From positions 181,047 to 245,046 of the forward strand of contig JAHFOO010000001.1 in NCBI GenBank assembly GCA_023261645.1: a stretch of DNA of 64,000 nt, read 5' to 3'. The DNA is from Candidatus Moraniibacteriota bacterium (lineage in GTDB: Bacteria; Patescibacteriota; Minisyncoccia; Moranbacterales; UBA1568). The position numbers and the translations under genes were made by a program. Shown in pieces: positions 1,798 through 4,776 of the stretch (its first letter is position 1; every line of letters starts with the position of its first letter). Below the pieces are notes generated by a model. The model searched no databases. It was not told the origin of the DNA and worked only from the letters and a program-made list of their open reading frames with translations.

Positions 1798-1813
1798 ACT
1801 TTCATATCAGATA

Positions 1814-1849
1814 GGCAGTCTCTCAAAAAAGACTGCCTTTTTGTTTTTT
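1814..1849 (+). terminator. rho-independent terminator after ndk
   Basis: 8-bp stem GGCAGTCT/AGACTGCC with an 8-nt loop, followed by a T-run. Confidence 0.7.
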
Positions 1850-1912
1850 GAGGTATAATGAGTATCTGAAATAGGAATCGGGCTGTAGCCTGCCTACGGC
1901 AGATAAATATAT

Positions 1913-1983
1913 CGGGGTGTCGTATAGTGGTAGTACGCAAGGCTGGGGGTCTTGTAGTCGGAGTCCGATTCTCCGCGCCCCGA
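1913..1983 (+). tRNA. tRNA-Pro (anticodon GGG)
   Basis: Hand-folded cloverleaf: acceptor CGGGGTG/CGCCCCG with the Pro-specific C1:G72 pair and discriminator A73; U8; D-stem GTAT/GTAC with loop AGTGGTA; anticodon stem CAAGG/TCTTG; loop C-U-GGG-G-G; T-stem CGGAG/CTCCG. The T-loop TCCGATT is atypical (C at 55). No encoded CCA. Confidence 0.8.
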
Positions 1984-2054
1984 CAATGAAGTTAAATTCC
2001 CTGGAGCATATAGGCTGGGTTCGATTCCCAGCAGCCCGACATCAGTTATCGCAT

Positions 2055-2213
2055 AAGGCTGGGGGGCGAAAAGTGAACTCTTGCCTACCGGCAGGCAGGG
2101 CTTCACATTTCGCGGGTGTTTCCGTAAGACGTCTCGGCTTACGAATGAGAAACACACCGGACTTGTAGTCGGAGTCCTCCTCCAGAGGCGGACAGGGATT
2201 CTCCGCGCCCCGA
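2055..2213 (+). pseudogene. degenerate duplicate of the tRNA-Pro anticodon-arm-to-3'-end segment, with insertions of about 95 nt in the anticodon loop and about 20 nt in the T-loop
   Basis: AAGGCTGGGGG, CTTGTAGTCGGAGTCC and ATTCTCCGCGCCCCGACAATGAAGTTAAATTC are repeated near-identically from the 1938-1999 region. No 5' acceptor or D-arm partner was found. Confidence 0.45.
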
Positions 2214-2293
2214 CAATGAAGTTAAATTCTCTGGAATGATAGAGACAGGGACGTCCACTATTCCGATCATTTGATCTCACCTCTGGCTTACGA

Positions 2294-2326
2294 TAAAAAA
2301 ATCCTCCGTGATGGAGGATTTTTTGT
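2294..2326. terminator. bidirectional rho-independent terminator between the tRNA locus and convergent rpmB
   Basis: A-run, stem ATCCTCC/GGAGGAT with loop GTGAT, then a T-run. Confidence 0.75.
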
Positions 2327-4136: not shown

Positions 4137-4604
4137 ATGCCACGAAGAAAACGACAATTTACACGCGAATGGAAACCGGATACTCTCTACAGTAATCCGC
4201 TGGTTGGTCATTTCGTGGGTATGATTATGTGGAATGGCAAGAAAAGCATCGCCGAAAAAATCATCTACGATTCTTTTGATATCATTCATGAGCGTACGAA
4301 GAAAGGCGGACTGAATACTTTCGAACAAGCCATCAAGAACGTTTCTCCGCTTCTTCAATTGAAATCTCGTCGTGTCGGTGGTGCCAACTATCAGGTGCCG
4401 GTGCCGGTGTCCGGTGAACGCCGTCAGGTGCTGGCTATGCGTTGGATTCGTGATGCTTGTCGCAAGCGTAAGGGCAAGGGAATGGCAGAAAAGCTGGCCG
4501 ATGAACTTCTTGATGCTTCGAACAAACTCGGCTCTGCGATGAAGAAACGTGAAGAAACTCACCGTATGGCCGAAGCCAACAAGGCCTTTGCGCATTTTGC
4601 GTAA
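4137..4604 (+). CDS. rpsG: 30S ribosomal protein S7
   Basis: MPRRKRQFTREWKPD ... conserved S7 sequence; ATG at 4137 chosen over the upstream in-frame start. Confidence 0.92.
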   Translation: MPRRKRQFTREWKPDTLYSNPLVGHFVGMIMWNGKKSIAEKIIYDSFDIIHERTKKGGLNTFEQAIKNVSPLLQLKSRRVGGANYQVPVPVSGERRQVLAMRWIRDACRKRKGKGMAEKLADELLDASNKLGSAMKKREETHRMAEANKAFAHFA

Positions 4605-4776
4605 AGCAAAATGCAATTTCTAATCTTCAATTTCTAATTTCTAATGAATTTTCAATGTCAAAAGGCATAACGGAAATTCATTTTGATAGTGGGACATTAA
4701 TGCGTTAGAAATTCCTGCTCGCTCGGCAGACGGGGTTTAGAAATTAGTAATTAGAACTTAGAAATTAACTAAAAAT

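Follow-up and report, generated by a model that had tools for sequence, protein, structure and literature searches.

Fragments and interrupted copies of tRNA genes have been described in several settings, as have very short repeats that form hairpins. Integrative elements leave pieces of tRNA genes behind them, and the identity blocks of tRNA attachment (att) sites typically span the anticodon arm to a point past the 3′ end. Archaea possess disrupted tRNA genes with multiple introns as well as split and tri-split ones, and tRNA introns of the Thermoproteales transpose (PMC4033280; summarized in PMC10714607). In bacteria, group I introns are inserted in the anticodon loop of tRNA genes. Among miniature repeats, the very small dispersed repeats of cyanobacteria reportedly treated by Elhai et al. 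in 2008 offer a comparison, together with the palindromic REP/REPIN sequences (PMC3116915) and the GC clusters of yeast mitochondria (PMC4478555). Here we analyzed a tRNA-Pro(GGG) locus in a stretch of 64,000 nucleotides (nt) from a Candidatus Moraniibacteriota bacterium (assembly GCA_023261645.1, contig JAHFOO010000001.1, positions 181,047 to 245,046 of the forward strand), which is called the window below and to which all positions refer. On the comparisons presented here, we consider it fairly probable that this locus consists of one working tRNA-Pro(GGG) gene and the non-functional debris of two other copies, left by repeated insertion, duplication and recombination at a hypervariable site. 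Loci and contigs from elsewhere are cited by L numbers.

Both ARAGORN and Rfam found exactly one tRNA in the 64 kb, the tRNA-Pro(GGG) at 1913–1983 on the plus strand (RF00005, 50.3 bits against a cut-off of 29), which confirms the canonical tRNA that an earlier note, made from the letters alone, had seen at this position. This gene, of the type that we call S-type, is the sole intact one, and it shows the proline features common to all 54 alleles collected (GGG anticodon, C1:G72 and A73). Its allele, CGGGGTG/CGCCCCG with the T loop UCCGAUU, is also intact in L012/L016. The conserved leader ATAAATATAT lies immediately 5′ of it (1903–1912, plus strand), and (A/G)TAAATATAT precedes tRNA-Pro in the window, L001–L004, L061, L120 and L136 alike. 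On the 3′ side, the trailer CAATGAAGTT is followed by AAATTCCC and TGGA (1984–2005, plus strand), which are the right arm and right end of the helix of a cassette of the type E described below, the left arm having been lost. The same trailer and right arm are present in L044, L120 and L136, where GGGAATTT pairs with AAATTCCC around a whole tRNA. In the T loop (1964–1970), C replaces U55, a residue that is almost universally conserved in tRNAs; a large share of the approximately 54 relative alleles do likewise (many loci, L013–L129), and the remaining ones have the T loop UUCGAUU or UUCAAUU.

Only 71 nt separate the working tRNA from a second, broken S-type copy on the same strand (2055–2235). 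This copy duplicates 1939–2005, from the anticodon stem to 22 nt past the 3′ end, and once its inserts are removed 65 of 67 columns are identical. Linear positions 27–37 (5′ strand of the anticodon stem plus loop) are at 2055–2065 (11/11 against 1939–1949), and positions 39–54 (3′ strand of the anticodon stem, variable loop, 5′ strand of the T stem and the first 3 nt of the T loop) at 2162–2177 (16/16 against 1951–1966). The third block, 2197–2235, matches 1967–2005 in 38 of 39 columns; it comprises positions 55–71 (rest of the T loop, T stem, acceptor 3′ strand and A73) at 2197–2213, identical to 1967–1983, and a second copy of the trailer, the right arm and TGGA at 2214–2235 (21/22 against 1984–2005). 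Linear positions 1–26 (acceptor 5′ strand and D arm) and position 38 are missing. The copy reported in the earlier note, with insertions of about 95 and 20 nt, is thus real, with the sizes refined to 96 nt (2066–2161) and 19 nt (2178–2196), while the flank identity reaches about 22 nt past the tRNA end and not 16. The note had also placed the large insert after anticodon-loop position 37/38; it lies at the 3′ edge of that loop and takes the place of standard position 39.

The other set of pieces belongs to a second type of gene for the GGG anticodon, which we call M-type; it has the anticodon arm CATGC-AUGGGGU-GCATG and the variable loop TAGG and is intact in L136. The 5′ relic CGGGCTGTAG (1879–1888, plus strand) equals positions 1–10 of this gene, and 2006–2039 on the same strand is its 3′ half, consisting of GCATA (3′ strand of the anticodon stem), the variable loop TAGG, the T arm (2015–2031), the acceptor 3′ strand (2032–2038) and A73. 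The 3′ half was compared with positions 38–71 of the L136 tRNA; two of the three differences make up a compensatory T-stem pair, and the exact T-arm and acceptor allele of 2006–2039 is also intact elsewhere. An acceptor-like pair bracketing the tRNA had been noticed before, and CGGGCTG (1879–1885, then TA) is indeed perfectly complementary to CAGCCCG-A (2032–2039), just as CTGGG-TTCGATT-CCCAG at 2015–2031 is a canonical T arm. The bracketing pair is not a product of chance, because both ends match the intact L136 gene (10/10 and 31/34). The outer gene lacks positions 11–37, and its former middle now holds a small hairpin, the leader, the S-type tRNA, its trailer and AAATTCCC-TGGA. The nested tRNA-Pro that had been suspected here is borne out at the level of DNA, with a working tRNA inside the ends of an older gene.

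The small hairpin, CCTGCC-TAC-GGCAG by its predicted fold (1889–1902, plus strand), is a CTGCC/GGCAG variant of a mini-hairpin family and stands at the break in the old gene. At the homologous position, L120 and L061 hold CCAGAGGCGG / CCTAAGGCGG, and hairpins of the CTGCC/GGCAG type are also found in T loops and repeats elsewhere (L020, L154). The module of 5′ relic, hairpin and leader occurs in L001–L004, L061 and L120 as well. A functional 7-bp pairing between 1879–1885 and 2032–2038 was rejected, since this module is kept in genomes that have no 3′ partner; the complementarity therefore reflects origin from one gene. Beyond the second trailer, 2236–2295 (plus strand) is a decayed remainder, with weak colinear similarity of 2214–2275 to 1984–2045 (43 of 66 columns); it probably arose as a copy of the M-type 3′ half behind the first trailer and has since degenerated. 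Judging from the sequence, neither extra copy can make a tRNA in this window, because the outer gene is without positions 11–37 and the second copy without 1–26 and 38.

The 96-nt insert, element E (2066–2161, plus strand), replaces T38 in linear numbering and was delimited by its fold and its homologues as hairpin h1 (2066–2113), hairpin h2 (2114–2158), whose right arm recurs in the trailers above, and GGA. Homologues were found in L136, L044, L120, L020 and L040, only ever in tRNA-Pro loci, in six lineages and at sizes of 76–96 nt. In L040, the gene that E interrupts in its anticodon loop is an M-type relic; this E is identical to the E of the window, which sits in an S-type relic, in 66 of 77 columns (86%); the neighboring M50 protease is only 83% identical in protein between the two. 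This identity across two types of relic supports E as an element. In L044 and L120, the second hairpin is the helix GGGAATTT...AAATTCCC, which encloses a whole tRNA-Pro gene behind h1, and this cassette lies in the anticodon loop of another tRNA-Pro gene; the E of the window is the same two-hairpin unit without a tRNA inside. The pairing of h1 is kept across the six lineages, with 6 of 12 pairs changed on both sides, and none of 500 shuffles reached the observed score. Nested in the h1 loop is a 20-nt mini-hairpin, CTTGCC-TACC-GGCAG-GCAGG (2080–2099, plus strand). L040 provides the empty site for it, with the h1 loop CTGC, and deleting 2080–2099 from the window restores exactly that loop. The comparison of filled and empty sites across genomes concerns this nested hairpin; E and the second insert were compared with paralogues, that is, with the intact tRNA in the same locus.

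The second insert, hp, is the 19-nt hairpin TCCTCCAGAGGCGGACAGG (2178–2196, plus strand), which lies between C56 and G57 of the T loop and was the sole copy that a motif search found in the window. A degenerate hp motif followed by GATT gave 55 exact matches in a species-representative genome collection, against about 0.5 expected by chance on our own estimate. The matches span more than 10 phyla, in metagenome-assembled genomes (MAGs) labelled as several phyla of the Candidate Phyla Radiation (CPR), Elusimicrobia, Ignavibacteria, Bacteroidota, Chloroflexota and others. Among them, two contexts are recurrent. The first is a multi-copy intergenic repeat of the form GATTACACAGATT-n7-hp-GATTACACAGATT, sometimes with other hairpins nested in it. 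The second is an intact tRNA (Pro, Arg, Val, Gly, Glu or Ala) followed within 7–150 nt by a partial copy of its 3′ part, in which hp splits the T loop between C56 and G57, always in the same orientation. Some MAGs are multi-copy for hp, with at least 10–15 copies in the fetched parts of single MAGs, and in L159 an insertion lies in the loop of another hairpin. Rfam returned only tRNAs on six hp-bearing loci, and none of its families covers hp. Among 2.9 million viral contigs there was no match for the tRNA 3′ part, E, hp plus GATT, the S-type core or the M-type core; a looser hp pattern gave 29 matches there, about the number expected by chance on a rough estimate of our own, all in GC-rich open reading frames (ORFs) and none with T...GATT flanks.

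Several hp loci are worth describing in their own right. In Elusimicrobia UBA6262 (L134, L135, L137, L140, L145, L154, L157, L174 and L176), direct and inverted GATTACACAGATT motifs form multi-copy intergenic repeats, and the same repeat family is present in ‘Clostridia’ binchicken_co220_96 (L132, L148, L155–L184) and in STB_115 / STB_132. These repeats contain hp, a CCCGCC...GGCGGG hairpin and larger palindromes nested in one another, and they resemble mosaics of the REP/BIME type. A 21-nt version of hp lies in frame inside fmt, a methionyl-tRNA formyltransferase-like ORF, at 2322–2342 of L131, where it adds SARGGQG between ...TLEALNEA and FLSIKAVVTQPDK. In L141 (Flavobacteriales, about 4390–4620, reverse strand), tRNA-Met positions 1–9, hp and a 23-nt leader are followed by positions 1–38, hp, the same leader and a full tRNA-Met; this arrangement amounts to 80-nt tandem units that each open with hp, and hp comes after positions 9 and 38 of two 5′ partial copies that lie upstream of the intact tRNA-Met. 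In L142 (4440–5440), behind a tRNA-Ala(CGC) come a 3′-part relic of it with a different T-loop hairpin, a segment of about 800 nt within a long ORF and a second relic with hp, a layout that looks like a small islet bounded by att-like repeats.

Compared with the known miniature palindromic repeats, hp, the nested hairpin and E are alike in being very short (19–96 nt), non-coding, hairpin-forming and nested, and also in being multi-copy in some genomes, patchy at homologous sites and apparently horizontally transferred. REPs, however, are species-specific, whereas hp is nearly identical across more than 10 phyla, and hp differs further from miniature repeats in its target, which is the loop of a hairpin already in place, 5′ of GATT, and notably the T loop of tRNAs. 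REPs have RAYT as a partner; no RAYT-like partner was identified here, where no systematic search for one was made. E, for its part, has so far been found only in tRNA-Pro anticodon loops and is able to hold a complete tRNA gene.

To see how common such loci are, we scanned metagenome contigs for the invariant 37-nt core of the working tRNA, which gave 117 loci. Among the tRNA-Pro(GGG) alleles in this set, all differences are covarying changes that fall in the acceptor and T stems. Fragments of tRNA-Pro outside the called tRNAs were present in 17 of 84 unique tRNA-Pro(GGG) loci with enough flank (about 20%). Nests, in which a tRNA lies between the halves of another, were found in L044, L120, L020, L059 (three levels), L112, L053 and L069, and for tRNA-Pro(CGG) in L074; the helix that flanks the nested tRNA differs in sequence from lineage to lineage. 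Several of the nested or relic loci are syntenic with the window (ndk ... M50 protease), at Ndk identities from 95% down to 68%, and the orthologous loci are patchy, from clean (L025, L023) to heavily nested. In the closest relative, L004, only the 5′ relic, the hairpin and the leader are kept, the tRNA has a third allele (A3), and it runs directly into the terminator. In L016, the 3′ end of an hp-bearing relic has this same allele A3, which is functional in L004. The extra copies in relatives that are equivalent to those of the window are often chimeric or have mismatched stems, and every locus with interrupted copies also has an uninterrupted tRNA of the same anticodon. L044 and L136 have flanks that are 91–100% identical, yet L044 holds an S-in-S nest, whereas L136 holds an intact M-type gene followed by S-type relics; at the level of sequence, this demonstrates the exchange of whole cassettes by recombination between close relatives.

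Two further arrangements were seen among the relatives. In L093 (7350–7500), an intact tRNA-Pro(CGG) is followed by two more tandem copies of about 57 nt (variable loop, T arm, acceptor and trailer) without a hairpin insert, and next by a 5′ fragment of tRNA-Pro(GGG) that is interrupted after its D arm. In the more GC-rich relatives L041, L027 and L119, the T loop of a downstream relic is split by a structured insert of about 100–130 nt, at whose beginning the T loop and T stem appear as their reverse complement (GGGAATCGAA / GGGAGAATCGGA); the inserts have motifs such as CGCGAG(C/G)TGGGGC and GAGCGGCGGCGAG in common.

The missing exons, the chimeric and mismatched copies of relatives and the intact tRNA that always stands alongside therefore speak for one gene plus debris at the DNA level. 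What is demonstrated is the anatomy of the locus, how each piece is homologous to known ones, that E and hp recur, the one pair of filled and empty sites and the exchange of cassettes between close relatives. Comparison with relatives leads us to infer the following order of events. A cassette bounded by a helix and carrying a complete S-type tRNA-Pro would have entered the anticodon loop of a resident M-type gene and left its halves on either side. The left half would then have been cut down to 10 nt plus the small hairpin and the AT-rich leader. A tandem duplication of the unit of S-type tRNA, trailer, right cassette arm and old 3′ half would have followed, after which the redundant downstream copy would have lost its first 26 nt. 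Hairpin elements would then have hit the loops of this copy, E the anticodon loop and hp the T loop, and E would later have received the 20-nt mini-hairpin in its own loop. On this account E and hp presumably move as DNA. That the elements enter pre-existing hairpin loops (the T loop, the anticodon loop, the h1 loop and the hairpin in L159) suggests a mechanism that acts on folded single-stranded DNA. It appears that interrupted copies persist only in the presence of an intact one; the partial duplication may be linked to the insertion, or may simply be the sole survivable outcome in an essential gene.

The extra pieces themselves are most likely relics without function, and the interest of this unusual locus comes from what they disclose: tRNA-Pro genes of Moranbacteria have repeatedly been replaced by nesting, and two small hairpin elements exist, one of them shared across phyla. 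In the streamlined genomes of the CPR, an essential tRNA gene present as a single copy proves to be a place where nested insertion, duplication and the replacement of cassettes are concentrated, with a turnover that involves two interchangeable gene types and dozens of acceptor/T-stem alleles. For annotation, the extra tRNA-like pieces are not genes, and loci of this kind break short-read assemblies and can be mistaken for introns or pseudogenes. E, which is specific to tRNA-Pro anticodon loops, and hp, which many uncultivated phyla have in almost unchanged form and which is drawn to tRNA T loops, would point to an undescribed hairpin-targeting insertion mechanism if they are truly mobile.

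A number of observations weigh against debris left by insertion and recombination. No transposase, integrase or mobilizing gene was identified, the rest of the window and the hp-rich genomes not having been scanned for transposases. No target-site duplication was found at the hp or E junctions, and no classical terminal inverted repeats were seen. The hairpins h1 and h2 and the helices around nested tRNAs keep their pairing through compensatory changes, which fits selection on RNA structure too. Between the working gene and the tRNA-like parts of the broken copy, identity is 100%, which could reflect constraint instead of a recent duplication or gene conversion. If hp were an ordinary selfish repeat, it would be difficult to see why it is nearly identical across phyla, and most of the relatives are orthologous loci, so that some shared features were possibly inherited and not independently inserted. 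A more specific proposal, which we regard as possible and advance only tentatively, is that Moranbacteria and other CPR bacteria harbor an undescribed, gene-less mobile cassette that homes into tRNA-Pro anticodon loops with a replacement tRNA inside its hairpin, in addition to a 19-nt hairpin that inserts 5′ of GATT in DNA hairpin loops in one orientation. If true, a cassette insertion that kills the gene would compensate for itself by bringing a complete tRNA-Pro, the tRNA-Pro locus would be a hypervariable site of cassette exchange, and a widely shared machinery that acts on hairpins would await description, for which an HUH-type enzyme working on single-stranded DNA is one candidate.

The partial copies could instead be attL/attR scars of tyrosine-integrase elements that entered the anticodon or T loop of tRNA-Pro and have since been almost wholly deleted, with the hairpins arriving later and independently; we think this unlikely. 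As in the tRNA fragments left by integrative elements, the repeats here are direct, lie downstream of an intact tRNA, start in the anticodon arm or T loop, end shortly beyond the 3′ end and occur in arrays (L093, L142 and L041). The second copy, from the anticodon stem to past the 3′ end (65/67), has the typical extent of a tRNA att block, its two interruptions coincide with the two classical crossover sublocations, and the two tRNA-Ala relics of L142 bracket an 800-nt segment with an ORF, while a relic in L160 lies about 150 nt downstream. Unlike such fragments, however, the repeats are themselves interrupted, almost no DNA lies between them (the 71 nt given above), and the neighbors (comEC/MBL, ndk, rpmB and M50 protease) are housekeeping genes with no adjoining integrase. 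Integration that supplies a 3′ half does not explain the 5′ relics upstream (1879–1888, L044, L120, L059 and L141) or the whole tRNAs between the halves of another tRNA, and the pieces concerned (the tRNA 3′ part, both tRNA cores, E and hp) were those absent from the viral contigs. Of the three explanations offered in the earlier note, small insertion scars come closest to the evidence, as both interruptions are recurrent hairpin elements, but they are not classical att sites, given the lack of an integrase or cargo and the interrupted repeats.

It is quite unlikely, in our judgement, that the downstream module (2055–2235), the outer shell (1879–2039) or both act as a functional tRNA-derived RNA or cis element, whether as a processing scaffold, as a decoy for a tRNA-targeting nuclease or integrase, or as a reservoir of silent cassettes for switching the acceptor/T-stem allele. 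The order of anticodon-arm piece, E, T-arm piece, hp, acceptor 3′ strand and trailer recurs in the window, L040 and L136; the hairpins covary; the fold of the locus is more stable than that of shuffled sequences (z = −3.8); and the module is probably within the transcription unit. The perfect identity of the tRNA-like parts to the working gene would fit as well, and relic alleles of one genome are working alleles in a relative, as with the A3 3′ end of L016 and L004. On the other hand, the module is missing from many orthologous loci, the closest relative included, its parts are chimeric and variably truncated, and hp occurs in unrelated non-tRNA contexts of other phyla, even inside a coding gene. 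Rfam adds no match: at the gathering score for the whole window and at E ≤ 10 for 1700–2450, only the tRNA was above threshold, and the weak matches Phe_leader, STnc370 and RNAI are the terminator hairpin. The tRNA-derived non-coding RNA that had been raised for this module gained no positive support, and the module is patchy among orthologous loci. A tmRNA, standard or permuted, was rejected, with none called by ARAGORN and tmRNA_permuted at 13.2 bits against a cut-off of 47. The earlier note had linked degenerate duplication debris to two outcomes, a single tRNA in covariance-model searches and flanking copies without structure or conservation; the models do find the single tRNA only, whereas the inserts are structured and are conserved as elements.

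It is very improbable that the interrupted copies are matured, by splicing in the archaeal manner or by group I self-splicing, and so represent true tRNA genes of the intron-containing or split kind. The positions of the inserts (edge of the anticodon loop, T loop 56/57, and the D arm in L112) do match archaeal tRNA introns, the helices bring the halves together, all stems of the outer genes in L059 still pair, and, as with the archaeal introns, the inserts behave as if mobile between tRNA genes. But the host is bacterial, the window candidates lack positions 1–26 or 11–37, and removing E leaves a 1-nt defect at position 39. As the interrupted copies are incomplete and an intact copy is present, splicing is neither needed nor possible in the window, and the uninterrupted tRNA with the same anticodon is always in the locus in relatives too. 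We know of no archaeal tRNA intron that carries another tRNA gene. A 3-4-3 bulge-helix-bulge was not seen at the junctions in predicted folds, although no dedicated search for this motif was made. E resembles bacterial group I introns in its insertion in the anticodon loop of a bacterial tRNA gene, but it is 76–96 nt long and consists of two plain hairpins without a group I core. Neither RF00028 (group I) nor any other intron or ribozyme model (group I/II) matched at E ≤ 10 in 1700–2450, tmRNA-type hits there stayed far below threshold, and 1879–2039 and 2055–2213 were not called as tRNA by Rfam even at E = 10. Literature searches returned no precedent in CPR for tRNA introns or for tRNA genes nested in one another, and none for T-loop hairpin insertions; the closest parallels are the disrupted tRNAs of Archaea with their mobile introns and the miniature palindromic repeats named at the outset. 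The intron-bearing second tRNA-Pro that the earlier note had considered is accordingly not supported.

An assembly chimera, in which strain variants of one tRNA locus were concatenated by the assembler, can hardly be entertained: several alleles do coexist in related samples, and Logan contigs from three other runs, which cover both sides, end within the tRNA and at the repeated 3′ flank, a behavior that short-k assemblies show at true repeats, but an independent ENA megahit contig from another sample (L188) is an exact match to 2013–2340 of the window, the right side and the left side are each covered by two further runs, and an assembler would not be misled by shared segments as short as 11 and 16 nt.

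The transcription unit of the locus can be outlined as follows. Its upstream limit is the intrinsic terminator of ndk (1813–1848, plus strand), found by a terminator scan and also as an inverted repeat. The candidate −10 box of the unit, TATAAT (1854–1859, plus strand), was read from the sequence and is kept in L001–L004; the promoter scan did not call it. The spacer 2040–2054 (plus strand), of unassigned origin, has no match elsewhere in the window, and no piece of the locus recurs elsewhere in the 64 kb. At the downstream end, the strong bidirectional terminator that the earlier note had described as closing 2040–2295 was recovered as a perfect 12-bp hairpin (12-nt arms, 100% complementary) between an A run and a T run at 2296–2324, common to the tRNA unit on the plus strand and rpmB on the minus strand. 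In L004, whose Ndk is 95% identical to that of the window, the orthologous terminator lies directly 3′ of the tRNA. As the extra pieces of the window lie between tRNA and terminator, this stretch is probably transcribed as a long trailer and then discarded.

The chromosome of origin belongs to Moranbacteria within the CPR, and the named Ndk homologues are mostly labelled Moranbacteria/Moraniibacteriota. The gene order is comEC/MBL, ndk (1192–1797), the tRNA locus, rpmB (minus strand, 2348–2515), M50 protease, rpsL, rpsG, fusA and tuf, with the neighbors identified from the ORFs of the window and the Pfam annotation of the genes of relatives. The Ndk encoded just upstream of the tRNA locus has 201 amino acids, longer than the typical bacterial Ndk of about 140–150 amino acids, and this long form is common to thousands of database homologues of the same group.

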